Part shown: positions 3,363-55,682 of the stretch, one piece after another | How positions within the stretch are numbered: the first letter of the stretch is position 1 | Layout: every line of letters starts with the position of its first letter | Assembly: GCA_001783065.1 (NCBI GenBank) | Contig: MFQN01000004.1 | Location: 22,836 to 86,835 of the forward strand | Direction of reading: 5' to 3' | DNA length: 64,000 bases | Source: Candidatus Magasanikbacteria bacterium RIFCSPLOWO2_12_FULL_43_12 | GTDB taxonomy: Bacteria > Patescibacteriota > Patescibacteriia > Magasanikbacterales > UBA922 | Translations under genes and position numbers: made by a program | The notes under the pieces: generated by a model | The model's input: only the letters and a program-made list of their open reading frames with translations | Database searches by the model: none | Told to the model about the DNA's origin: nothing

Positions 3363-4109
3363 ATGTCAGAAATCCTAACTCCCGTCGCTATCGCGATTGG
3401 CATTCTCGTCATCATAAGCGTCCGGCAAGTAAATCAGTATCAGCGAGGCGTAAAATTCATGCTGGGAAAATATATCACCACCGCTGAACCGGGCTGGCGT
3501 TTGATAATTCCGATTATTCAAAGCTTGATCAAAATTGACATGCGCACCAAAGCTGTGGATGTGCCTCTGCAAGAAGCAATCACGAAAGATAATATCTCGG
3601 CTAAAATCAACGCGGTGATTTATTACAAAGTCGTTGACGCGGCCAAAGCGGTGCTGGAAGTGGAAAATTTTTGGAACGCGGTTTCCCAATTGGCGCAAAC
3701 GACGATGCGAAATGTCGTCGGCGAATTAGAGCTGGATGAATTGCTGGCCAACCGCGACACCGCGGCGCAGAGAATAAAAGAAATTATTGAAAATGCCGCC
3801 AGTCAGTGGGGAATCAAAGTGGAGGCGGTTGAACTGAAAGACATTGTCTTGCCGGAAAATATGCAGAGAGTAATCGCCCAGCAAGCCGAAGCCGAACGGG
3901 AAAAAAGATCAGTGATTATCAAAGCGAGCGGAGAAGTGATTGCCGCGGAAAACATCGCCAAAGCCGCCGCCATTCTGGCGCAATCACCCGGCGCGCTTCA
4001 CTTGCGGACATTGAGCACGATCAATGATTTAAGTTCAGACCAATCAAACACTGTTATCTTCGCGGTGCCGCTGGAAGTATTGCGGGCGTTTGAGCGACTG
4101 GGGAAATAA
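3363..4109 (+). CDS. SPFH/band-7 (stomatin/prohibitin-like) membrane protein
   Basis: 248 aa with an N-terminal TM helix and a conserved SPFH core (QYQRGVKFMLGKY...AKINAVIYYKVVD...VELKDIVLPENMQRVIAQQAEAEREKRSVIIKASGE). Confidence 0.85.
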   Translation: MSEILTPVAIAIGILVIISVRQVNQYQRGVKFMLGKYITTAEPGWRLIIPIIQSLIKIDMRTKAVDVPLQEAITKDNISAKINAVIYYKVVDAAKAVLEVENFWNAVSQLAQTTMRNVVGELELDELLANRDTAAQRIKEIIENAASQWGIKVEAVELKDIVLPENMQRVIAQQAEAEREKRSVIIKASGEVIAAENIAKAAAILAQSPGALHLRTLSTINDLSSDQSNTVIFAVPLEVLRAFERLGK

Positions 4110-4117
4110 ACGAATGG

Positions 4118-4607
4118 TGATCTTGCGTCTCCCCCCTACGAAGGGGAGAACAAGGGGGGTGTTCGCCAATCGCGGCTCACTTGTGTGGTGTTTGAAAATC
4201 GATAATATAATTTTCTATTTCTACTAATATACTTTCTAAATCCTCCCTCACCCGCTCGTCATCAAACCGCAAAACCGTTAAACCCAAATCTTCTATATAA
4301 TCCACCCGTCTCCTGTCATACGCTTCTTTCCCCTCGTGGCTGATGCCGTCTATTTCAATAACTAATTTTAATTCAAAACAAAAAAAGTCGGCAATGAAGT
4401 TACCGATTGGCTTCTGTCGCATAAACTTGTAACCTTGAAGGCGTCTATTTCTTAAACAATGCCACAACATCCGTTCAGCATAAGTGCGGCCTTTGCGTCG
4501 CAATTTACTGGCATATGATTTTAACTTGGGGTTGTATTGTATTTTCATGGTAGTGGTTTTGACACGAGCGAACACCCCCTCTGTCTCCCCCTTCGTAGGG
4601 GGAGGAC
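4118..4607. mobile_element. DUF559-endonuclease cassette bracketed by about 38 bp terminal inverted repeats
   Basis: Left arm CTCCCCCCTACGAAGGGGAGaacaaGGGGGGTGTTCGCC (4118-4156). Right arm GCGAACACCCCCTCTGTCTCCCCCTTCGTAGGGGGAG (4571-4607) is its reverse complement. They enclose one DUF559 gene. Confidence 0.5.
4177..4548 (-). CDS. DUF559 (Vsr-like endonuclease domain) protein
   Basis: Conserved DUF559 core YKFMRQKPIGNFIADFFCFELKLVIEIDGISHE...LGLTVLRFDDERV. The ORF-track N-terminal extension up to 4617 is read-through of the flanking repeat. The likely start is MKIQYNPK at 4548. Confidence 0.75.
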   Translation of the reverse strand: MKIQYNPKLKSYASKLRRKGRTYAERMLWHCLRNRRLQGYKFMRQKPIGNFIADFFCFELKLVIEIDGISHEGKEAYDRRRVDYIEDLGLTVLRFDDERVREDLESILVEIENYIIDFQTPHK

Positions 4608-4700
4608 GCGCGCTCACTATTTATATTTTTAAATAGACTTTCAATTGACAAAAGAAAAAAAATTTAATATAATAGTCGCGTTTTATTAAGGAAGCATTTG

Positions 4701-4785: not shown

Positions 4786-5529
4786 TTATTCCCTTATATC
4801 CTTATACTCCTTCGTAAACGGTCTCTTGAAGACTAAAATCCAAAAAAAATTAAGGGCGTAGCGATAGCCGGTGATGAAAGCGCCTTCTTTGGCTAAACGC
4901 CTGCCGGAGCTTAAAATCGGCAGACTGAAAGTAAATTTAACCGGACCGACCGCGCGAATCCTGCGCGCGATGTCCGTATCTTCGCCGTAAAAACTTATGC
5001 TGGTGTCAAAACCGCCTATTTTTTCCAAAGCCGTTCTCCTAACGATAAAATTTCCGCCCTGCAACATCGCGCCCTTTTTAAAAAAAATCTCATTAAAAAT
5101 ATAAATCAAATAACCCAAACCATAAAAAATTTTTGTCTGGATTTTTGTCCACCGCGGCAAATCATAAAATACGCATGGGCCGGATAGAGCCGCCAAGTTT
5201 GGATTACCAGCAAATTCAGTGAAAACTTTTTTTAACCAACCTCCTGGCATTATATTATCCGCGTCGATGTTGGCGATCAAATCTCCCTTAGACGCCAAAA
5301 AACCCGCTTGGCGGGCAAACACTATTCCTTTTTTATTTTCATCAACAACTTTCACGCGTGGAAACGATAGCGCGATTTCTTTTGTCTTGTCAGTGCTCGC
5401 GTTGTTGACAACAATAATTTCCGCTTCGTAAAAATTATTTTTAATCTCTTTCAAAACCGATTCCAAACACCGGCCGATATTGGCTTCTTCATTGTGGGCG
5501 GGAATGATAAACGAAATAGCAAAACCCAT
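4786..5529 (-). CDS. family 2 glycosyltransferase
   Basis: 247 aa. FIIPAHNEEANIGRCLESV...IIVVNNASTDKT...NIDADN motifs typical of GT2. Confidence 0.75.
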   Translation of the reverse strand: MGFAISFIIPAHNEEANIGRCLESVLKEIKNNFYEAEIIVVNNASTDKTKEIALSFPRVKVVDENKKGIVFARQAGFLASKGDLIANIDADNIMPGGWLKKVFTEFAGNPNLAALSGPCVFYDLPRWTKIQTKIFYGLGYLIYIFNEIFFKKGAMLQGGNFIVRRTALEKIGGFDTSISFYGEDTDIARRIRAVGPVKFTFSLPILSSGRRLAKEGAFITGYRYALNFFWILVFKRPFTKEYKDIRE

Positions 5530-5605
5530 AACCCAGCTAACAAAACACAGAGAATTGGCGATTTGGCTCGTTGTGTTTTGTTAATTGTGTTATGAGTTCT
5601 GAAAC

Positions 5606-6118
5606 TCACCAAATCGTCCCTTCGTTTATCGTCTCGTTCAGTGGATCGGAATTATAATATTGGCTCGTATCTTCGTCCACTGTAAATTCCGAACCGGAAT
5701 AGAGCGGTGTCGTCGGCTTGTTGTATTGTTGCGCCTTCAGCAAATATTTGTTGACAAATAAAGTTATGCTGAACGCGCTGAAAGTTATCAGCAGGCCGAT
5801 GACGCAATAACGAATTACTTTCTTCCCCTTTTCAACTTTTTCTTCCTCGCCGGCGGATAAAGTAATCAAAAAACCGGCGTAAACCATATAGAGTGTAAAC
5901 AAAACTCCCACTGTTCCAAGCATCACCTGAACCACCAGCGCCGCCACCTCTCTCGGGTCGCGAGCGTTGCCATAGTTCGCGCCCTTTGTCCCCGCGGCGG
6001 ATTGCAATTGGGTTTGCAGGTCGGTGGTGTAGTCGGCGGATGCTGGAAGAGCTGGCAACACGAAGGCAGACAGAATGATGATTGTAAAAAATAGTTTATA
6101 CATGGATTTAAAACACAT
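5606..6118 (-). CDS. two-helix pilin-like membrane protein, paralog 1 (VirB2/TrbC-like topology)
   Basis: Signal peptide, then a hydrophobic helix ...LYMVYAGFLITLSAGEEEKVEKGKK... and a second helix VIGLLITFSAFSITLFV, then an acidic C-terminal tail. It shares the family motif (L/F)xxY(A/G)G(Y/F)xWMTARGEEE...K....I..IG..I...Y.IT.FV with 11 downstream paralogs. Confidence 0.6.
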   Translation of the reverse strand: MCFKSMYKLFFTIIILSAFVLPALPASADYTTDLQTQLQSAAGTKGANYGNARDPREVAALVVQVMLGTVGVLFTLYMVYAGFLITLSAGEEEKVEKGKKVIRYCVIGLLITFSAFSITLFVNKYLLKAQQYNKPTTPLYSGSEFTVDEDTSQYYNSDPLNETINEGTIW

Positions 6119-7741: not shown

Positions 7742-7872
7742 AGCGGAGTTCACAGATTCCCTCCTCGGAGGAGGGCGAGGGAGGTGTTCGCCAACCTTCG
7801 CGAACACACCCCCTGCCCCTCTCCGAGAGGGGAAGTTACGAGTTCCCTCCTCGGAGGAGGGCGAGGAAGGTG
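7741..7872. repeat. REP-like triple-hairpin repeat (family A: CCTCCTCGGAGGAGG / GGTGTTCGC..GCGAACACACC / CCCCTCTCCGAGAGGGG)
   Basis: Tandem units. The same element recurs at 8251-8390, 13791-13908, 24083-24203, 32259-32336 and 41093-41176. Variants are at 4118-4156/4571-4607 and 9661-9745/10150-10262. Confidence 0.8.
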
Positions 7873-8265
7873 TTATCCCTCTTTATGATGTTTAATCCAA
7901 TCATTAATAACTTCCCACACACCTTCCATATGACACTTAACTTGGTTCTCGGTAAATCGTAAAAACTTTATATCATTGCTTTCTAAAAACTTTTGTCTTT
8001 GGTTGTCGTAATGAATTTTTCCATCATGACTTATGCCATCCACTTCAATTGCCAACATCAGTTCGGAACAAAAAAAGTCTACAATATAGCGATACAGCGG
8101 TTTTTGACGGTGAAATTTATAACCCTCCAATTGTTTGCCACTTAAGTATTTCCACAAAAGAATTTCGGCCAGTGTAGAATTTAAACGCAAATTTCTTGCC
8201 CGTTCTTTCAGTTTCGGATCGTAAGGAATAAATTTTTTTATCATATTTTTTACCCCAGCGAACAC
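7873..8265 (-). CDS. DUF559 (Vsr-like endonuclease domain) protein, copy 2
   Basis: YKFHRQKPLYRYIVDFFCSELMLAIEVDGISHD...IKFLRFTENQV. Flanked on both sides by family A repeats. Confidence 0.75.
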   Translation of the reverse strand: MFAGVKNMIKKFIPYDPKLKERARNLRLNSTLAEILLWKYLSGKQLEGYKFHRQKPLYRYIVDFFCSELMLAIEVDGISHDGKIHYDNQRQKFLESNDIKFLRFTENQVKCHMEGVWEVINDWIKHHKEG

Positions 8266-8390
8266 ACCCCTTGCCCCTCTCCGAGAGGGGAAGTTACGAG
8301 TTCCCTCCTCGGAGGAGGGCGAGGGAGGTGTTCGCCAACCTTCGCGAACACACCCCCTGCCCCTCTCCGAGAGGGGAGTTGTTGAACTAC
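8251..8390. repeat. REP-like triple-hairpin repeat (family A)
   Basis: cccctctccgagaggggaagttacgagttccctcctcggaggagggcgagggaggtgttcgccaaccttcgcgaacacaccccctgcccctctccgagagggg. Confidence 0.8.
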
Positions 8391-13908: not shown

Positions 13909-13962
13909 GTTGTGTTTATTTTCGTAGTTCGTAATTTCGTATTCTTTTCGTATGTTCGCACA

Positions 13963-15048
13963 TCACTTTATCCCTCTAAACTCCGTATTCACATTCAAAA
14001 TTTCCAGCATCAAATCAATCGCCGCGTAAGCGACCATGGCGACCACGAGTCCGAGCGCGGCCGCGATCATTGTTTTCTTCCCGGTCTCCACCATTTCCGC
14101 GTTGCCCATAGAGACAATCATCTTGAAACCGCCATAAACGAAAAACGCGAATGCGAATGTGCCTAAAATCGCGAACATGCCGCTGGCGAAATTTATTATT
14201 AATTCCAATAAATTATTCACACTCCGGCAAGTCCCGGAAAACGCGCAGTCAGGCAAAGCGCCAGCATAGTCCTTCGGTTTTCCGTACTGGTTTTCTATCC
14301 AAGCGTCAACGGTGGAGGTGGTCTGCACCGGCGAAACGCCGGTGACGGAAAAATATATACTTCCATCAAGAGTTTGTGATTCTACTCCAGCGACAGGAAC
14401 AGATGCCTTTACTTTCAATTCATAAACTTTTGTTATCAGTTGTTCCGTTGATGTGTCCCAAACAATCTTTGCTTTTCCGCTTCCATCTTCATTTTTTAGC
14501 TCCGCGCTTAATTCCTCGCAATTAACGCATTTTATCTCAATTTCTTCTTTGGTGCCGACGGCCTCAATCTCCGCTGTGCCAATTTTCCCTTCTGTAACTG
14601 GGATCGGATTGCTTTTACTTCCTACATTTGTATTCCACTTCAAATTATACCATTTCACCCAGTCATACATTGTTGCTCCGTTAGTATCTGTGTAAGTTAC
14701 CGCATGATACAACTGACATTTTGGCGTGTCAGCTGTAACGCATACTTTTTTTTGATCAACCGCAAACTGTAAAAGATTTTCACAATCCTCTGTTTTTAAA
14801 AATTTGATAGTCTCATCAACATCCTTAAACGATATCTCTTCGGCCTCGGTTTCACCCAGCCCAATCTCCAATTCCTCCTCTGTATAATAACATCCTCCAT
14901 CTGAAGTCTGTTGAGAATATTTGCAATAACACTTATCACTATACGTCAAAAAAGCCGCGTTTTCTGAAGCATAAACATTTTGTACGTACACCAACACAAT
15001 CGCTAAACCAGCAATGATAGTGATTAGATATTTAATCTGATTCCGCAT
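13963..15048 (-). CDS. two-helix pilin-like membrane protein, paralog 11, with a large (about 270 aa) Cys-containing N-terminal ectodomain
   Basis: Signal/TM MRNQIKYLITIIAGLAIVLVYV. Long variable domain. C-terminal core FAFAFFVYGGFKMIVSMGNAEMVETGKKTMIAAALGLVVAMVAYAAIDLM. Confidence 0.55.
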   Translation of the reverse strand: MRNQIKYLITIIAGLAIVLVYVQNVYASENAAFLTYSDKCYCKYSQQTSDGGCYYTEEELEIGLGETEAEEISFKDVDETIKFLKTEDCENLLQFAVDQKKVCVTADTPKCQLYHAVTYTDTNGATMYDWVKWYNLKWNTNVGSKSNPIPVTEGKIGTAEIEAVGTKEEIEIKCVNCEELSAELKNEDGSGKAKIVWDTSTEQLITKVYELKVKASVPVAGVESQTLDGSIYFSVTGVSPVQTTSTVDAWIENQYGKPKDYAGALPDCAFSGTCRSVNNLLELIINFASGMFAILGTFAFAFFVYGGFKMIVSMGNAEMVETGKKTMIAAALGLVVAMVAYAAIDLMLEILNVNTEFRGIK

Positions 15049-16906: not shown

Positions 16907-16988
16907 AAATTTTCATTCTAAATTTCGTAGTTCGTAATTTCGTACTCTTTTCGTATGTTCGCACATTCCATAGTTCGCACATCCCACA

Positions 16989-20024: not shown

Positions 20025-20146
20025 ACGAAAAGGATACGAAATTACGAACTACGAACAGCGAATTGGGGTAAAAAATAAAAATATATATATCATCATGATA
20101 TTTCGTAGTTCGTAATTTCGTAATTGTTCGTAAGTTCGCACATAAC

Positions 20147-20812
20147 TCAATTCCCTTTCAAATTCCTTATCATCGCCGCGCTTTCCACTTCCAGCGGCAC
20201 CGGGCTTTCGGTTGGGTCTTCTTCAAGCTCAAGACGCACGCGAATCATTCGCGCGTCAACCTCGTCAATCGGTTGGACCAGCGCGGCTTCAGTGCCGGTG
20301 TAATCTTCGTCATAATACAAAAACACTGGTTCGCTCTCTTCAAAATTCACCACGCTGTGCGCGATTTCAACCGTTTGCTCCGCGCCGGAATAGCTTAATG
20401 GACTACCGCTCGGTTTTATCACGCCCTTTTTTAATGTTGTCCCATCCAACCAGAACCTTACCCGTTCCCGCAAACTATCGTCATCAACGTTGGCGTAAAC
20501 AATCAGTTCATAATCACCCGCTTCTGCCAGCGGATAGCCGCCAATGCTGGATTCTTCCGCCTTTCTAACAACATCAACTACTTGCTGTAAAACTTTGCGG
20601 CCGTCGTTTTGGGTTTGCAATTGTCCAAAAATAATATCGCTGTAACGCAAACCATCAATAATCAACCAAACTACTGTTATGGCAATCATAGCGGAAATTC
20701 CCAAAGCCACCGATAACTCCACAATAGTAAATCCCTTGTGTTTCTTTGTGTTTTTTCTACGTATCATATTTTCGTAGTTCGTAGTTTCGTAATTGTTCGT
20801 AAGTTCGCACAT
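20147..20812 (-). CDS. prepilin-type N-terminal cleavage/methylation domain protein (type IV pilin/pseudopilin-like)
   Basis: KGFTIVELSVALGISAMIAITVVWLI class III signal. Confidence 0.7.
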   Translation of the reverse strand: MCELTNNYETTNYENMIRRKNTKKHKGFTIVELSVALGISAMIAITVVWLIIDGLRYSDIIFGQLQTQNDGRKVLQQVVDVVRKAEESSIGGYPLAEAGDYELIVYANVDDDSLRERVRFWLDGTTLKKGVIKPSGSPLSYSGAEQTVEIAHSVVNFEESEPVFLYYDEDYTGTEAALVQPIDEVDARMIRVRLELEEDPTESPVPLEVESAAMIRNLKGN

Positions 20813-20814
20813 AA

Positions 20815-40569: not shown

Positions 40570-40810
40570 ATTTGATGTTAGTCATTCATTACGCCCCGTA
40601 GGGGCGGTTGATAGTAGCCAGGCCTTTTAAGGCCTGGAAAGGATAAAATAAGTTTCAAAAGTCCCGTAGGGACGACAGAAACGGTGGCGCTTCAGCAAGG
40701 TTCTGTCGTCCCTACGGGACTGGTGTTGTTTGACTGGATTACCAGGCACTAAAGTGCCTGGCCACTGTCGAGCGTCCCTAACGGGACTTTTGCGCGAGCG
40801 TTTGTTTTTC
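40570..40810. repeat. multi-hairpin repeat element (family F: GTCCC..GGGAC and CCAGG..CCTGG modules)
   Basis: agtcccgtagggacgacagaa...ttctgtcgtccctacgggact long inverted repeat. ccaggccttttaaggcctgg and ccaggcactaaagtgcctgg hairpins. A second copy is at 49130-49345. Confidence 0.7.
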
Positions 40811-49129: not shown

Positions 49130-49345
49130 TGACCGTCGGGTCATTTAAAAATTAATTTCACAGTCCCATCAGGGACGATAGATAATAGCCAGGCACTTTA
49201 GTGCCTGGAACCAGAATCAACAAACACTCAAAGTCCCGTAAGGACGACACAAAGCACTTCTGCCGTCCCTACGGGACTACGATTTAAATATGAATTTTTT
49301 CCAGGGCATAAATGCCCTGGCTACTATCTGGCGTCCCTATCGGGA
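49130..49345. repeat. multi-hairpin repeat element (family F), second copy
   Basis: agtcccgtaaggacgacacaaagcacttctgccgtccctacgggact, ccaggcactttagtgcctgg, ccagggcataaatgccctgg, cgtccctatcgggac. Confidence 0.7.
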
Positions 49346-50920: not shown

Positions 50921-52288
50921 TTATTTTACGTATTGGAACGGGTTGACGCGGCGGCCGTTGACGCGGACTTCAAAGTGAACATGGGGACCGGTTGAGCGTC
51001 CGGTAGATCCCATAGCGGCGATGGTTTGGCCTTGCGAAACCGATTCGCCGACCTTAACATACAAACGCGAATTGTGGCCGTAAAGAGTGATTATTCCGCC
51101 GCCATGGTCAATTATAACATAACAGCCATAGCCGCCATTCCAGCCGCACTGCGAGCGGGTAACTGTCCCCCCCCGCGAGGCATAGATTGGTATGCCAACC
51201 GGGCCGGCAATATCTATGCCAGTATGCCGCCAGGTAAAGTATTGCGTAATTCTGCGCACGGTTGTCGGCCATAAATAACCCGAACCAGCCGGCAGGTTAA
51301 TTGAAGAGGGTGGGGCCGAGATACTGCCAAACTGGGTGTAAACACGGCTTGGAGCGTAAACAGGCTGTGGTTTTAATCCATCAGGAATTACCAAACCTTC
51401 GCCAACAACAACATCAGACCCATCTTCTTTTAATTTATTGAATTTAATTATTTTTTCAACATCGGATTTGTAGAGTTTGGCGATTTTCGCGATCGTGTCG
51501 CCTTTCTTGACAGTATGAACAAGTCCGGACACCGGCAAGATTTTTAATTCATTTCCCGGCCGGATGTATGAACGTTCGGTTAAGTTGTTAGCCCAAAGCA
51601 CGGTGAGCACGCTAATGTGATATTTTTCCGCGATACTGCCGATAGTGTCGCCGGTTTGCACAACATGCAAGACAATTTGTGTTCTGGTCGGACCGGAAGT
51701 TGAGCCGGGGATAATCGCGCCGGGCAAGATGGTTGGTTTTGATAAAGCGGTTCCGCCCGCGCTGATAGACGCGATGTCTTGCGGCTGAATTGGTTGGATA
51801 GCGGCGCCGGTTGTTACTCCCGGTTGCGCGCCAACCGCGCCTTCTTTCCAGTTTGGCGCCGTAGTTCCTTGGTTAGAAACAGAAACCGTTTCAAAGGTTA
51901 TTTCTTCAAGACTGAAATCTTGTTCGCCCGGGCCGACAATCTTGTAGAGCAGTGTTTTTTGGCCGGTGATTTCAGTCGTGTCGCGCGTGTAAAGGCGGCT
52001 GTGCGGGATCATTAAAAAGACAACGATCAAAAAAATAATTACTTGGAGCACTCCTCTGCTGCCAAAAAATTCAGCCGCCCGATTTCCTTGGGTCAAATGA
52101 AGCTTGTTAGTCAGTTTTTTTAAACGAAAGCCGATTTTTAAAATCCTAAAGCCAAAAAAGTTTTTCGCGGCAAGGCCGGTTTTTATAAACAAAAAAGAAA
52201 ACCGTGCTAACGACCAAATTAGGCCTCGTTTTAGGTAAACCAAAGTTTTTAGGCCAATCAGCAGTATTTTGTGGTAGTTGATAGGCAT
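50921..52288 (-). CDS. M23 family metallopeptidase with two LysM domains
   Basis: LysM repeats (VQTGDTIGSIAEKYHISVLTVLWANNL; TVKKGDTIAKIAKLYKSDVEKIIKFNKL). C-terminal M23 motifs (YGCYVIIDHGGG, GSTGRSTGPHVHFEVR). Confidence 0.8.
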   Translation of the reverse strand: MPINYHKILLIGLKTLVYLKRGLIWSLARFSFLFIKTGLAAKNFFGFRILKIGFRLKKLTNKLHLTQGNRAAEFFGSRGVLQVIIFLIVVFLMIPHSRLYTRDTTEITGQKTLLYKIVGPGEQDFSLEEITFETVSVSNQGTTAPNWKEGAVGAQPGVTTGAAIQPIQPQDIASISAGGTALSKPTILPGAIIPGSTSGPTRTQIVLHVVQTGDTIGSIAEKYHISVLTVLWANNLTERSYIRPGNELKILPVSGLVHTVKKGDTIAKIAKLYKSDVEKIIKFNKLKEDGSDVVVGEGLVIPDGLKPQPVYAPSRVYTQFGSISAPPSSINLPAGSGYLWPTTVRRITQYFTWRHTGIDIAGPVGIPIYASRGGTVTRSQCGWNGGYGCYVIIDHGGGIITLYGHNSRLYVKVGESVSQGQTIAAMGSTGRSTGPHVHFEVRVNGRRVNPFQYVK

Positions 52289-52291
52289 AAA
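52262..52291. repeat. 30 bp direct repeat copy 1 (covers the start codon of the M23 peptidase gene)
   Basis: cagcagtattttgtggtagttgataggcat. The minus strand encodes MPINYHKILL. Copy 2 at 53186-53215 is 28/30 identical. Confidence 0.7.
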
Positions 52292-52435
52292 ACAGAAGGT
52301 AGATATTATCTACCTATTTTGTCTCTCTGTCAACGATTAAAGTATAGCATAGATTGGGCCGTTGATTAAGTGTTTTGGGATTTTAAAACAAAACCACCCA
52401 CAAGCTGTGGGTGACTAAAGAAGCGCCGGCATTAT

Positions 52436-52696
52436 TTATTGGTAAATATCGTGATCTCCCACAGAATGAAAACACACCATATTTTTGTCTTTGGAGAATT
52501 CAAAAATTATTCGGTATTTATAGCTGACAGAAAAAGATAAAAAGCCGCTCAATTTGCCTTTTAGCCGGTGTGTTTTTAGTTTGGGATCAAATATGTTTTT
52601 GCGGAAAAGCGCTTCTTGCTCCTCGGCAATAGTTTTAATGGCGCTGGGCAGTTTTTTGTATTCCCGAGCGAATTTTGGGCTGTAAATTATCTCCAT
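52436..52696 (-). CDS. type II toxin, RelE/ParE family
   Basis: LKTHRLKGKLSGFLSFSVSYKYRIIFEFSKDKNMVCFHSVGDHDIY. Confidence 0.65.
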   Translation of the reverse strand: MEIIYSPKFAREYKKLPSAIKTIAEEQEALFRKNIFDPKLKTHRLKGKLSGFLSFSVSYKYRIIFEFSKDKNMVCFHSVGDHDIYQ

Positions 52697-52708
52697 ATCC
52701 GGCGGAGA

Positions 52709-52924
52709 CTACCTTAAATTTTTTAAAGATTTTAAAACTTTGCCCTTGCCAGCTGCGATTTCTAGACGGCTCTTGTTTAATTCTTTCAGAAGCTGGTTTT
52801 CTTGCCAGTCTCTTAGCAGTTCTCTAAAAAATTCACTGGTTGAAGAGTAGGATCCGGTTTTAACGGCGTTTTTAACCGTTTTGACCATGAGAGGGGGGAG
52901 AGACAGGTTGAGTACTTGACGCAT
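52709..52924 (-). CDS. ParD/RHH-type antitoxin
   Basis: MRQVLNLSLPPLMVKTVKNAVKTGSYSSTSEFFRELLRDWQE, immediately upstream of the RelE/ParE gene. Likely start at 52924. Confidence 0.55.
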   Translation of the reverse strand: MRQVLNLSLPPLMVKTVKNAVKTGSYSSTSEFFRELLRDWQENQLLKELNKSRLEIAAGKGKVLKSLKNLR

Positions 52925-53185
52925 AGGCGTAAAATTAATTGTATTACATTGTAATACAATAGTATCATGGAGCAAAAACTTTGTCAAGCGCTTGTGCAGA
53001 TCCAAATTATTTTCTCACCCCACAATCATTGTGTTGTGTCTCGCGTCAGTCCTGTCTGGAGAGCTGGCGCGGGATCACTTTCGTGTCTCCTTGTAGTTGC
53101 CGGGCTGAATAAGTTCACCCACATTCTGGACTCCTAATCAGGGTCTATATGAGACAATTTTGTATATATAAAGGTATCAACCAGC

Positions 53186-53215
53186 AGGATTTTGTGGTAG
53201 TTGATGGGCATTTTT
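53186..53215. repeat. 30 bp direct repeat copy 2 (orphan duplicate of the peptidase 5' end)
   Basis: cagcaggattttgtggtagttgatgggcat. The minus strand would encode MPINYHKILLVDTFIYTKLSHIDPD stop. Confidence 0.7.
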
Positions 53216-53284
53216 TGAATAGCGCTGATTTAGATAGATTTTGTCGGATTACACAGATTTTGGAACAACAGCGGATTATAAAAT

Positions 53285-54445
53285 TTAGTCAATAAACAAT
53301 GGATTGCTACTGTCAATGATTTTGACTTTCACGCGATATTGGTTTTCAAAAGCCCTGGTATTTATATTTTGTTTTTTCCATTTGATTTCATAAGCGGAAA
53401 TTCTTCCGCCTTCTTTTACGATCATGTCCACCTCGCTCTTTGCCTTTGAACGCCAAAAAAACAGATTTCTTTTTCGGCCAAAGAGCAAATTGTGTTTGGC
53501 AAATTCCGCCACTACCCAGTTCTCCCACAATTGGCCGATGTCGCTTCGCAACGGATTTAAAGAAAATTCATTCAAGATGGCGTTTCTGACACCAGTGTCA
53601 TAGAAATAAATTTTGCGGCTTTTTGAAATTTCCTTTCTCGGATTTGTGCTGAATGCCGGCAAGCGAAAAATTACAAAAGTTTCTTCCAGTAAGTCAAGAT
53701 ATTTGTTGATCGTAGCCTTGTTGATTCCCAAACCGCTCGCCAACTCGTTCACGGAGACCTCCGCGCCAGCTTGATGCGCCAACAGCATCAATAATTTTTT
53801 GATTAAATCCGGAGTTTTAATCAAGCCGAGCTGGAGCACGTCTTTTAGCAGGTAGTCTGACACCAGATTTAATAAATATTGCTGTTTATCCGCGGAATTA
53901 ATCGTTTCCGGATAATTGCCAAAAACCAGAGATTGGATCAACAGAGAGTTTATTTGCGGCCCGAAATTTTTATTCAAAGCGGCATTTTCATAGGTGGCGG
54001 AATACCACGGCTGGCTGGCGACGACCTCTTTAAATAAAAACGGAGACAGGAAAAGTTTTTCGTTCCGTCCAGTCAGGCTTTCCGCGGGTTGATTTATCAG
54101 GTCTAAACTTGAAGAACCAAGCAAAAAAATTTTTGGATTAACTGACGCGTCATACCAGCCTTTGATAATCTGGCCGGTATTTTTTAATCTTTGCGCCTCA
54201 TCAATGATAAGGTAGCTTGGCTCACCGATTGTTTTCATGGCCTGAAACGGCTCCAATGTTGACATGGCCAAAAACCTGTTCTTATCCACCTCAATATCCA
54301 AATTTAAAAACGCCGTCTTTTCATTGGCCAGAATGTGTCTTATTAACGTGGTTTTGCCAACCTGCCGCGCTCCTAAGATTATTAGAACCTTGCTATTTTT
54401 GAGCGTTTTTGACAGAATCTCTTCAGCGATCCTTTTTATATACAT
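53285..54445 (-). CDS. AAA+ ATPase with C-terminal DUF4143-like domain
   Basis: Walker A LGARQVGKTTL. 386 aa. C-terminal region typical of the AAA_14/DUF4143 family. Confidence 0.7.
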   Translation of the reverse strand: MYIKRIAEEILSKTLKNSKVLIILGARQVGKTTLIRHILANEKTAFLNLDIEVDKNRFLAMSTLEPFQAMKTIGEPSYLIIDEAQRLKNTGQIIKGWYDASVNPKIFLLGSSSLDLINQPAESLTGRNEKLFLSPFLFKEVVASQPWYSATYENAALNKNFGPQINSLLIQSLVFGNYPETINSADKQQYLLNLVSDYLLKDVLQLGLIKTPDLIKKLLMLLAHQAGAEVSVNELASGLGINKATINKYLDLLEETFVIFRLPAFSTNPRKEISKSRKIYFYDTGVRNAILNEFSLNPLRSDIGQLWENWVVAEFAKHNLLFGRKRNLFFWRSKAKSEVDMIVKEGGRISAYEIKWKKQNINTRAFENQYRVKVKIIDSSNPLFID

Positions 54446-54795
54446 AAAAAATAGATTATTCTATATACCGTAGTATATCAAATAATATATAATTTGTCAA
54501 TAGAAGTCTCTTTCTGTTGTATTTTGTTGTTGTGTCAACTTGCCCAAAGCGATTTCGGATCGATCGAAATGGAGTCGGTGGGTGGGTAGAGTATAGCACA
54601 AATTCAGTCCGGGATTAAGTCCAAGACGTATGTGGCCTTGTATATGGCATTATCCACATGTCATTTTATTTTTTAAAAAAAGGCGGCGTGTCTTGACTCT
54701 TTTAACATTTTATGTAAATATATTAACGTCAAGTTGCCGGGCATGGTGTCCGGAAATACTAGACGAGATGTCAAGAAAGATGAGGAGGATGGAAC

Positions 54796-55275
54796 GTGAA
54801 TACCAAGTGGACTCCCGGGCTGGTCAAAGATGTGCAGGCCTTACTGATCATCACTGGCTACGATAAGAGCGGCCGGCTGAACGCCGACGGCGACCTCGGC
54901 GAGCACACACGGAATGCCTTGTTGGCATTTCAGGCGCACGAGGAGCTCGAGCAGACCGGAGAACTGAACGAGGAAGTGCTTCAGCACATGGCCAACCATT
55001 TCTTCGACCCGTCGGCAGGTGGGGTGGATCCTATCAAGAGAATCCAGGCGGCCATGTTCCTTGAAGGCTTTGACTCCGGCGGCGAGCTCATCGTCGATGG
55101 CGTTCTTGGCGAGCACACACAGAAGATGCTTCCGCTCCTCACCGCACACTACTACGTCATGAACAGGAGCTACTGCATCGATCTCCCCGAGGCCGATGAG
55201 AAAGCGCCGGACGGTTGCCGCGCCGAGACCGTCGATGTGCCGCCGAACGGCGAGGGCGAGCGCAACCGGCTCTAG
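54796..55275 (+). CDS. peptidoglycan-binding-domain (PG_binding_1-like) repeat protein in a GC-rich island
   Basis: GTG start with strong RBS GAGGAGG. Two repeats of the LxxxGYDxxGxLxxDGxLGExTxxALxxFQ pattern. GC far above local background. Confidence 0.5.
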   Translation: MNTKWTPGLVKDVQALLIITGYDKSGRLNADGDLGEHTRNALLAFQAHEELEQTGELNEEVLQHMANHFFDPSAGGVDPIKRIQAAMFLEGFDSGGELIVDGVLGEHTQKMLPLLTAHYYVMNRSYCIDLPEADEKAPDGCRAETVDVPPNGEGERNRL

Positions 55276-55682
55276 CCGAATGCGGCTCGAACCATCCACC
55301 TTCCGTTTCTTCCACACGACATCCAATCTCTCGTTGGGTGCGCGCCGCAAGCCCATCCAACTCCCCAAGGTGACAACTTTTCACTTTAGGGAGATGGGTT
55401 TGCAAAAATAATAAAACCACCTATAGAAATATGGATGGTTTTTTGTTTTGTTTACACAGCCGTCTTTTTGCGGAGGATGTATATTTTGTTTATGAAATGT
55501 TAAACGGATTAAAATTTTGTTTTAGCAGATTTTGGACAGGGTAGATAAACTTGCTAACATTTTTTTATAGGGTTGGTACAAAATAAGTTTAACACTGATT
55601 ATTACAAAACACAATCTTGACTTTTATCGTCCGTCTTTCTATAATATACCCCGTTAAACCATCTAACTCTTAACTCAATATT

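Follow-up and report, generated by a model that had tools for sequence, protein, structure and literature searches.

The second start of the M23 peptidase gene in this Magasanikbacteria (CPR) genome, a short direct repeat lying beyond a toxin-antitoxin (TA) pair (copy B in Table 1), is most likely a largely ordinary genome scar, produced by recombination between versions of a variable spot. The specific reading that we favor, with a probability of about 0.5, is that copy B is the start of a peptidase allele stranded at the junction between two haplotypes of a variable region upstream of the gene. The evidence comes from the window (the whole 64,000-nt stretch of DNA analyzed) and from its comparison with other loci, designated here with L numbers; it points to recombination of divergent hotspot versions that leaves small scars, rather than to transposition.

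Table 1. Coordinates of the features around the two copies of the peptidase gene start, as positions in the window.
Feature	Position	Strand	Evidence
Intact M23/LysM peptidoglycan peptidase gene, 455 aa	50921–52288	-	Pfam Peptidase_M23 (E 2.9e-35) plus two LysM
Repeat copy A, functional start of the peptidase gene (its first 34 nt)	52255–52288	-	
Peptidase promoter TTGACA-17-GATAAT (11/12) and 5′ UTR hairpin	52297–52333	-	Promoter/hairpin scan
Intrinsic terminator downstream of the toxin gene	52392–52416	-	11-bp stem, then a T-run
Toxin gene, 86 aa, RelE/YafQ/YoeB-type	52436–52696	-	Profile matches below curated cut-offs (see text)
Antitoxin gene, 71 aa from ATG, ribbon-helix-helix	52709–52924	-	RHH_1 (E 7e-4)
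Cassette promoter TTGACA-17-TACTAT with TG, overlapping a 23-nt palindrome	52938–52987	-	
What remains of gene143, the ancestral upstream gene (final ~10 codons, PGNYKETRK*, and the sequence downstream)	53006–53105	-	
72-nt filler between copy B and the gene143 remnant, holding the tail of the orphan ORF	53106–53177	-	
Repeat copy B, orphaned start of the peptidase gene, matching copy A at 31/34	53178–53211	-	
73-nt spacer, from the DUF4143 stop codon to copy B	53212–53284	-	
DUF4143/AAA_14 ATPase cassette, with its own promoter at 54472–54500	53285–54502	-	Pfam DUF4143 (E 4.8e-42), AAA_14

The duplicated start of the peptidase gene

The first-pass annotation had described a 30-nt direct repeat, with 28 matches, at positions 52262–52291 and 53186–53215. 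Both the repeat and its match count stand, whereas the positions were 3–4 nt off, with the 30-mer sitting at 52259–52288 and 53182–53211. The likeness extends to 34 nt with ~9% divergence and starts exactly at the ATG; a second match was absent in 100 of 100 dinucleotide-preserving shuffles of the window. Two of the three differences between the copies are synonymous (CCC/CCT and ATC/ATA) and the third is a Val/Ile replacement (GTT/ATT), with Val also present at this position in L018; judging from this pattern the differences look allelic, and the surplus of synonymous codon changes lacks significance after allowing for selection on the intact copy. As had been reported, copy B heads a 25-codon orphan ORF (53134–53211, minus strand), which has the sequence MPINYHKILL in common with the peptidase and should be annotated as a pseudogene fragment, not as a gene.

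The arrangement is not an assembly artefact, because 16 contigs from ENA, JGI and Logan assemblies carry the same layout with 99.9–100% identity. Two Logan contigs, ending at positions 53135 and 53137, were considered as a possible alternative haplotype in the population and discarded, since their look-up gave the known arrangement alone. A second peptidase start was found in none of the 73 related loci examined.

Orthologues of the peptidase gene occur in 80 Magasanikbacteria-type loci, mostly between the genes for H+-PPase and ComM; ComM and pilin-like genes are also within the window. Upstream of copy A, 125 nt can be aligned to the region preceding the peptidase gene in L018, L017, L099, and L180. 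The 5′ UTR hairpin (GGTAGATAATATCTACC, 52297–52315) is conserved in L017, L018, L097, L098, and L099, and hairpins homologous to the terminator that follows the toxin gene are found in L018 (after an acetyltransferase gene), L099, L180, and L017, including relatives that lack the TA cassette. A promoter-like likeness between 52338–52371 and 54587–54620 was rejected as a further duplication, the simpler explanation being two promoters that share the −35 and extended −10 consensus. Likewise, we rejected a donor-derived mosaic within the peptidase gene, because in both sliding identity and dS the window behaves uniformly as an outgroup to L017 and L018, and no sharp boundary appears. Peptidase dS (0.74–0.79, against 0.71 for H+-PPase) is not raised above that of H+-PPase, so no donor mosaic is visible inside the gene, an observation that counts against the haplotype model.

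The toxin-antitoxin cassette and its neighbors

The TA pair had been labeled ParD-ParE, which proved half right: it is a TA pair in kind, whereas the toxin is closer to RelE/YafQ than to ParE. The toxin matches YafQ_toxin (Pfam; E 1.1e-5, 26.1 bits vs. a cut-off of 30), RelE_StbE (NCBIfam; 26.4 bits vs. a cut-off of 27.9) and ParE_toxin (Pfam; E 2.4e-4, 22 bits vs. a cut-off of 23), and also gives a HigB-like Pfam match. Additionally, a profile built from 35 toxin homologs matches the PDB chains YoeB and HP0892 (E about 1e-3). The antitoxin matches the ParD-family TIGR02606, also below cut-off (E 9.6e-7). There are 646 clusters related to the toxin, several of them named RelE/StbE or YafQ by their sources, and, because all profile matches fall below curated cut-offs, they appear to constitute a divergent, Patescibacteria-wide subfamily. 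The pair resembles type II TA modules that combine a RelE/YafQ/YoeB toxin with a ribbon-helix-helix (ParD/CopG-like) antitoxin in the order of the genes (antitoxin first, ending 12 nt ahead of the toxin start), their sizes, the promoter overlapped by a palindrome, the patchy, cassette-like distribution and the weak but consistent profile matches; it differs from them in that none of these matches reaches its curated cut-off.

Antitoxin and toxin are kept together in 9/9 aligned sequences from six genomic positions. The 23-nt palindrome (52938–52960) is the presumed operator of an autoregulatory promoter, and both promoter and palindrome are conserved in L180, L017, L182, L184, L188, and L190. 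Likeness between the different contexts of the cassette begins at the −35 box, and the cassette occurs with sharp boundaries, from this box to the toxin stop codon, at no fewer than five further positions in Patescibacteria genomes. Together with the finding of the same site empty in L018, L099, L097, and L098, this upholds the view of the pair as an accessory cassette. Carriage of the cassette on phages was rejected, as two scans of viral contigs yielded no relatives of it.

The interval between the copies had been thought to hold exactly the TA pair, which is not the case: it also contains a gene remnant, filler sequence, promoters with the presumed operator, a terminator and the 5′ UTR hairpin. 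The remnant comes from gene143, a 142-aa gene found upstream of the peptidase gene in L099 and L180, and intact in L180 ahead of the cassette; the remnant is 85% identical to positions 3,636–3,738 of L099 and colinear with L180 from position 1,184. The GC-richer segment at 52990–53130 was rejected as a structured RNA or tRNA, since it showed no Rfam match even at E ≤ 10 and no tRNA, and corresponds to the 3′ end of gene143. The adjoining filler has no match elsewhere in the window, in 175 fetched sequences, or in Rfam. On the other side of copy B, the 73-nt spacer is unrelated to the conserved peptidase upstream region, and no minus-strand promoter or terminator was matched within it. The ATPase cassette behind which copy B stands matches PADLOC PDC-S01 (E 2.7e-115) and would be a candidate phage-defense gene; it is 81–86% alike at the amino acid level to those in L100, L101, and L102, with the likeness spanning only from the promoter to the stop codon.

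Gene-start stubs, empty sites and insertion

The layout recurs on an unrelated contig. In L190, the start of a GluRS-like gene (tRNA-synt_1c, E 1.8e-106) is present both intact and as a stub, with a member of the same cassette family between the two. This stub spans 69 nt with 90% identity, reaching about +117 (up to about 120 nt) when an indel is admitted, and abuts the −35 box of the cassette family. Its ATG shares nucleotides with the stop codon of the gene upstream (ATGA), in what looks like a native operon junction, and its differences from the intact start include ACT/ACC, GGT/GGC and a TCT/AGT switch between serine codons. The window and L190 held the only bona fide gene-start stubs in 1.4 Mb of scanned sequence; other "gene-start repeats" flagged automatically were rejected, being spurious ORFs, members of paralogue families or of intergenic repeat families, or, in L141, a tRNA att site. 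No bracketing repeat was found at ten other TA loci, seven of them with this cassette family. The link between the cassette family and orphaned gene starts may be real, because L190 repeats the layout, with stub cases numbering two and L190 having been fetched for carrying the cassette. A possible cause would be that loop-out deletion is prevented by TA addiction.

In both L180 and L017 the cassette occupies the same site as in the window, and their peptidase start is not duplicated. The empty sites of L099 and L018 align continuously with the terminator, the promoter and the ATG on the copy A side; this continuity puts the insertion point in non-coding DNA about 100–130 nt upstream of the peptidase ATG, and outside the gene. 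These sites bear directly on the initial interpretation of the repeat as an insertion footprint, in which the cassette would be a mobile unit whose insertion makes a long target-site duplication of the gene start. Such an interpretation gains from the sharp cassette boundaries, conserved in every context, and from the presence of the cassette family between a stub and an intact gene start at two independent loci that hold all the bona fide stubs of the survey. However, the site can be occupied with no duplication, judging from the empty sites the insertion lies upstream of the promoter, these sites match the copy A flank only, instead of both flanks joined, and the 3′ end of gene143 and the host promoter would both be inside the supposed element. 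The repeats do not abut the conserved cassette either, with 188 nt (including the host-gene remnant) and 147 nt (host terminator and promoter) in between. Moreover, the duplication is not of fixed length (34 nt in the window vs. 69 nt in L190, where it reaches up to about 120 nt), identity between the copies is incomplete (91% in the window, 90% in L190), and a likeness starting exactly at the ATG is not expected of a staggered-cut duplication. No transposase, integrase or terminal inverted repeats were found at the interval, and the TA loci devoid of bracketing repeats and the viral contigs devoid of cassette relatives also argue against this interpretation, which we consider very improbable and, at this locus, already contradicted by L180 and L099.

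In comparison with transposon target-site and att-site duplications, the window is alike in having direct repeats that flank accessory DNA, one of them preserving an intact host gene, and differs in the lack of a recombinase or element ends, the variable repeat length, the divergence of the copies, the host sequences inside the bracket, and empty sites that are contrary to prediction. The idea of a recombination footprint keeps some merit in view of L190, where the same cassette family accompanies a duplicated gene start, while that of a target duplication by cassette insertion does not. A 7-nt motif (AAATAAT) at the true cassette boundaries was also rejected as a target duplication: it occurs in the window only, the right-hand junctions of L017 and L180 differ, and part of it is the context of the toxin stop codon.

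It is highly improbable that the copies are the attL and attR sites of an element integrated by site-specific recombination and carrying a replacement gene start, in the manner of tRNA-targeting islands. Elements that duplicate a gene end at integration are well known; additionally, the DUF4143 locus in L141 is bracketed by a duplicated tRNA 3′ end, and a tyrosine recombinase gene adjoins the cassette in the L182/L183 context. Nevertheless, no integrase exists in or beside the 923-bp interval, where matches were obtained for no ORFs other than the toxin, the antitoxin and the neighboring DUF4143 ATPase. The content of the interval is host-derived, as seen for the gene143 remnant and the native promoter, and the 73 relatives with no second peptidase start indicate that an att site is not recurrently used.

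We regard as quite doubtful a more general scenario in which the RelE/YafQ-RHH cassette spreads across Patescibacteria, in a stereotyped and recombinase-free way, into the 5′ ends of housekeeping genes, with regeneration of the start, a stub of variable length and retention enforced by the TA pair. If true, the cassette would be a mobile addiction module associated with gene starts, in genomes that carry few other mobile elements.

Probable recombination at a variable region

From 53105 to 50900, the window is colinear with L180, L099, and L017, and it is unrelated to these three left of 53105. The cargo between H+-PPase and the peptidase gene differs in every relative, and this H+-PPase/M23 region is a recombination hotspot. 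It includes a deletion junction with microhomology (AGAT) that removed a tRNA-Ile, two occurrences of GTCAAGA flanking a ~920-bp segment with a PG_binding gene, and, beside the H+-PPase upstream region, a relocated 44-nt piece whose place in L017 is downstream of tRNA-Ile. L017 also shows simple deletions, which left a 5′ fragment of gene143 and an antitoxin-toxin fusion. Toxin dS between the window and L017/L180 (1.1–1.7, estimated from just some 50 synonymous sites) is higher than in the flanking genes (0.5–0.8) and is therefore a hint that the cassette block was exchanged and not vertically inherited.

We infer a recombination between two haplotypes, with DNA uptake as its route and a stabilizing role for the TA pair. 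Haplotype 1 would be the clade-typical arrangement seen in L180 (142-aa gene, cassette, terminator, promoter and peptidase gene), and haplotype 2 would have the DUF4143 ATPase directly upstream of the peptidase start, thereby carrying the junction ...GCGCTATTCAAAAAATGCCCATCAACTACCACAAAATCCTGCTGGTTGG followed by the full-length peptidase gene. DNA of one haplotype would have recombined into the other through a homologous crossover on the peptidase/ComM side and an illegitimate joint 34 nt inside the peptidase gene; that is, by homology-facilitated illegitimate recombination or, equivalently, by a Campbell-type integration of a circularized fragment. This would leave a single complete peptidase gene under its usual promoter and, behind the ATPase, a stub with 34 nt of the other allele; the cassette would have come along as cargo of the recombined block. 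Two such haplotypes would share the gene but not its upstream DNA, so that the likeness would start exactly at the ATG. TA addiction would then penalize a loop-out deletion between the repeats, helping the stub to persist. The independent repetition of the layout in L190 counts in favor of this recombination, as do the variability of the hotspot and its AGAT junction, the colinearity that ends at 53105, the allelic look of the codon differences, the toxin dS, and the ComM and pilin-like genes in the window. Counting against it, the second parental haplotype (DUF4143, 73-nt spacer and full peptidase gene) was not found in genome, metagenome and exact-protein searches, and such a parent would be devoid of the 5′ UTR hairpin, which all the relatives examined have conserved.

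Homology-facilitated illegitimate recombination is known from experiments in Acinetobacter, Streptococcus pneumoniae, Pseudomonas stutzeri, and Escherichia coli (PMC3240628). The window resembles these cases in having one homologous side, an abrupt joint with unrelated DNA on the opposite one and a leftover piece of the recipient gene; it differs in that the event is deduced from metagenome assemblies of an uncultivated bacterium, with one parent type (L180) identified. We found nothing directly relevant in the literature that ties TA cassettes to this type of recombination and, to our knowledge, an association of TA cassettes with its footprints is undescribed. TA loci stabilize chromosomal regions such as superintegrons. 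Similarly, an addiction module located between direct repeats, as in the window, would penalize their deletion, although the window has no integron attC sites or integrase.

A local rearrangement within one genome is possible, if on the unlikely side. Here, an L180-type ancestor would lose most of the 142-aa gene and gain the DUF4143 cassette, either by tandem duplication followed by deletions or by template switching during replication, with the peptidase start as a patch in the joint and the cassette as a bystander. The hotspot does contain other small duplicated pieces and microhomology joints, such as the GTCAAGA pair and the relocated 44-nt piece, and the simple deletions of L017 in the same region also support it, as does the failure to find the second parental haplotype. 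Additionally, the known sequence nearest to copy B is copy A (31/34, vs. 30/34 for L099), which favors local copying. However, it would take a coincidence for the patch to start precisely at the ATG, and we reason that a single tandem duplication leads to the observed order only with several further events. As for L190, the ATGA fusion of its stub resembles a native gene start rather than a copied patch, and its serine-codon switch is unlikely under neutral decay of a young copy. A single large tandem duplication was also considered for both permuted pieces of the hotspot, and was rejected because their order is impossible without extra events.

Recombination between haplotypes, the reading that we prefer, would make copy B an instance of the shuffling of accessory modules, here a TA pair and a candidate defense ATPase, in uncultivated CPR bacteria, whose streamlined genomes have few classical mobile elements. 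If the link between the cassette and the stubs holds, it would represent a signature, in natural populations, of one-sided recombination, probably after DNA uptake, as well as a concrete case of an addiction module guarding repeat-flanked DNA against deletion.

The duplicated peptidase start

The first-pass annotation had described a 30-nt direct duplication at the start of the M23/LysM peptidase gene, and we confirmed it with 28/30 matches, at 52259-52288 and 53182-53211, 3-4 nt away from where it had been placed. The repeat extends to 34 nt (31/34 matches; copies A and B in the Table), and a second match within three mismatches arose in 0/100 dinucleotide-preserving shuffles. Similarity is confined to these 34 nt, its onset coinciding exactly with the ATG; copy A terminates at the ATG of the peptidase gene, while copy B opens, as already noted on first reading, an orphan ORF whose product has MPINYHKILL in common with the peptidase before diverging. 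Of the three differences between the copies, two are synonymous and fall at third positions; the other is an Ile/Val replacement, with Val also present in the related locus L018. Since the whole arrangement was found in 16 contigs of independent ENA, JGI and Logan assemblies, with 99.9-100% identity, an assembly artefact is ruled out.

Upstream, 73 nt without a match anywhere separate copy B from the DUF4143 stop codon. L008 and L009, Logan contigs assembled from separate sequencing runs, stop 2 nt apart at 53135-53137, inside the filler and ~40 nt short of copy B. These ends may reflect an assembly-graph branch (strain heterogeneity) or low coverage; our look-up found no alternative arrangement near this point.

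Table. Features of the window, with their positions.
Feature	Position	Strand	Remarks
Direct repeat, copy A	52255-52288		
Direct repeat, copy B	53178-53211		
M23/LysM peptidase gene	50921..52288	minus	455 aa; Peptidase_M23, E 2.9e-35
Orphan ORF	53134..53211		25 codons; copy B at its head
Antitoxin gene	52709..52924		71 aa, ribbon-helix-helix; RHH_1 E 7e-4, ParD-family TIGR02606 E 1e-6 (under curated cut-offs)
Toxin gene	52436..52696		86 aa; YafQ, HigB, RelE/StbE and ParE profiles (slightly under curated cut-offs)
gene143 remnant	53006-53105		
Hairpin	52297-52315		GGTAGATAATATCTACC; perfect, 8 bp, 9 nt upstream of peptidase ATG
GTCAAGA with A-rich lead-in	54690-54696; 55615-55621		~920 bp between
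PG_binding_1 gene	54796..55275		high GC (~0.6)
DUF559 gene	7873..8265	minus	Vsr-like endonuclease, E 5e-31; region 7760-8385
75-nt direct repeats	7800-7874; 8258-8332		97%
44-nt repeat family	13920-13963; 16923-16966; 20101-20145; 20770-20814		TTTCGTAGTTCGTAATTTCGTAAT..TTCGTA.GTTCGCACAT
Acido-Lenti-1 RNA motif (Rfam)	49162-49208; 40592-40637	minus	43.4 and 37.6 bits, above gathering score

The toxin-antitoxin pair and its point of insertion

A profile built from 35 homologues of the toxin weakly matched the solved YoeB and HP0892 toxins, and its close homologues carry the source names RelE/StbE or YafQ. Immediately upstream of the pair is a TTGACA-17-TACTAT promoter overlapped by a 23-nt palindrome. 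Judged by sequence, the pair appears to be a type II toxin-antitoxin system in which a toxin of the RelE/YafQ kind is matched with a ParD/CopG-like antitoxin; the initial ParD-RelE/ParE label therefore holds for the antitoxin, while ParE is not the best name for the toxin. Toxins of this family are widely distributed (646 clusters, 73-84% identical). The conserved unit spans ~555 bp, starting with the -35 box and ending at the stop codon of the toxin gene, and occupies at least six unrelated genomic positions.

Comparison with related loci locates this cassette with respect to the repeat. In L099, an empty site without the pair, the order is gene143 (the ancestral gene upstream of the peptidase), ~70 nt, terminator, promoter, hairpin and peptidase ATG; L018 is also empty, and its terminator-promoter-ATG stretch aligned to window positions 52413-52289. 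In L180, full gene143 is followed by the cassette and by the same terminator, promoter and ATG, with 1184->2022 colinear with window positions 53105->52247. In L017 the cassette is found at this site too (5580-5855), preceded by no more than the first ~40 codons of gene143 and in a decayed state: after a deletion, antitoxin codons 1-12 continue in frame at toxin residue 9 to give a 91-aa ORF. A second peptidase start was found in none of these four loci, nor in 73 related loci tested. In the window, 53105-53006 comprises the final ~10 codons of gene143 (PGNYKETRK*, identical to the comparison protein P0121) plus downstream sequence. From these comparisons and the gene143 remnant, it follows that the cassette entered non-coding DNA ~100-130 nt upstream of the ATG, that copy A and its 125 upstream nt are ancestral, and that copy B lies on the far side of the remnant of the old upstream gene.

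The bracketed interval was first thought to hold exactly the ParD/ParE pair. Read in the sense of peptidase transcription, it begins with a 72-nt filler and the remnant of gene143, continues with the cassette promoter/operator, antitoxin, toxin and terminator, and closes with the peptidase promoter and 5' UTR. Because the interval holds more than the pair and the insertion point is upstream of the ATG, not at the repeat, the proposed target duplication by cassette insertion is contradicted: the pair is an accessory cassette, as suspected, but the repeat is not its footprint. More generally, a transposon-like target duplication or a site-specific att duplication fails several defining tests, since neither a recombinase nor element ends are present, the repeats vary in length and their copies differ by ~9%, the bracket encloses host sequence, and the empty and occupied sites disagree with such an event. 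In contrast, a DUF4143 homologue in L141 resides in an island flanked by a 39-nt duplicated tRNA 3' end (887-925 and 2800-2838; 97%), a classical att-site signature.

Gene143 (L099:3238-3669) belongs to a conserved family of ~142 aa, without matches in Pfam or NCBIfam, whose members are from CPR bacteria and DPANN archaea (Woesearchaeota, Nanoarchaeia) by source names, with 45-90% identity. The hairpin, possibly a translational or transcriptional control element, is kept in L017, L018, L097, L098, L099 and L180, even amid differing surroundings; copy B lacks the hairpin found upstream of copy A.

A variable spacer upstream of the peptidase

This CPR/Patescibacteria groundwater genome belongs to Candidatus Magasanikbacteria, in whose relatives ComM is usually beside the peptidase gene and, in many, a divergent H+-PPase gene lies directly upstream. 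The spacer is hypervariable within the clade: it carries tRNA-Ile and an acetyltransferase-like gene in L017 and L018, four other genes in L097, an M49 peptidase in L098, NUDIX and the 143-aa gene in L099, and a PG_binding gene, a DUF4143 ATPase and the toxin-antitoxin pair in the window. Given this variable cargo and the match of the ATPase to the PADLOC defence candidate PDC-S01 (E 2.7e-115), the region behaves like a small accessory/defence hotspot. The closest relatives of the DUF4143 cassette (L100-L102; 81-86% aa) are similar only from promoter to stop. In a distant Magasanikbacterium (L100:1-6536; peptidase 38% and H+-PPase 64% identical) the cassette, 86% identical, occupies the equivalent spacer and points towards the H+-PPase gene, opposite to the window, suggesting that it moves between equivalent hotspots.

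The ~920-bp segment between the GTCAAGA copies holds the PG_binding_1 gene and a 44-nt piece that L017/L018 have downstream of tRNA-Ile. The window lacks the tRNA-Ile(GAT) gene, and AGAT microhomology is seen at the deletion joint.

Elsewhere in the window, the DUF559 gene lies exactly between 75-nt direct repeats, which are part of a hairpin-rich unit of ~86 nt (~1.5 copies per side) between two T4SS-pilin paralogues; it resembles a small selfish gene that either entered a repeat array or brings one with it. The 44-nt repeat family, made of TTCGTA-like units, may be a regulatory or 5' UTR element that several genes share, and at least two copies (20101 and 20770) adjoin type IV pilin-like genes. 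One Acido-Lenti-1 match, unexpected in a CPR genome, is directly downstream of ComM.

Origin of the second start and its recurrence

We consider that the repeat is most likely a recombination scar in this CPR accessory-gene hotspot. In the simplest reading, copy B would have begun a peptidase allele that belonged to another hotspot haplotype, with DUF4143 directly upstream. The two haplotypes would have been linked by a homologous crossover on one side and, on the other, by an illegitimate joint lying 34 nt inside the peptidase gene. Such an event fits the definition of homology-facilitated illegitimate recombination given in PMC3240628; integration of a circularised fragment through a single crossover would be equivalent. 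The window also carries ComM and pilin-like genes. Genome, metagenome and exact-protein searches did not retrieve the postulated DUF4143-peptidase parent haplotype. Between the window and L017/L018, dS was 0.71-0.72 for H+-PPase, 0.74-0.79 for the peptidase and 0.49-0.55 for ComM; the toxin values, from only ~50 synonymous sites, were 1.14 (L180) and 1.68 (L017), a hint that the cassette block may have been exchanged. Along the peptidase gene itself, we saw no mosaic boundary.

At an unrelated locus (L190:4601-5414), a cassette of the same family also lies between two copies of a gene start. Here the 69-nt repeat (4601-4669 and 5346-5414; 90% identity) comes from a GluRS-like gene (tRNA-synt_1c, E 1.8e-106), of which it covers -6 to +63. 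Apart from a 16-nt deletion, the stub carries on up to ~+117, at which point it adjoins the cassette -35 box; it has decayed from HIGG to HIDG in the class I synthetase motif. Its ATG overlaps the stop codon of an upstream 102-aa gene (ATGA), as would a native operon junction, and its differences from the intact copy, including ACT/ACC, GGT/GGC and a TCT/AGT serine-codon switch, are closer to those expected between functional alleles than to the decay of a recent duplicate. A complex rearrangement of purely local origin, by duplication plus deletions or by template switching, may have occurred instead; it would agree with the other small relocated pieces in the hotspot and with the microhomology deletion that removed tRNA-Ile, but it leaves unexplained both the onset of the stub at the ATG and the native-looking L190 junction.

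Bracketing repeats occurred in 2/12 toxin-antitoxin loci tested, the window and L190, which also hold the only bona fide gene-start stubs in the 1.4 Mb of fetched sequence; because L190 was fetched on account of its cassette, this recurrence is suggestive, no more. Retention could plausibly link stubs and cassettes: cells in which the flanking repeats recombined would lose the addiction module and pay a penalty, which would keep stubs in place beside toxin-antitoxin cassettes. The independent L190 case turns the scar into a testable hypothesis on the spread and persistence of addiction cassettes in these genomes.
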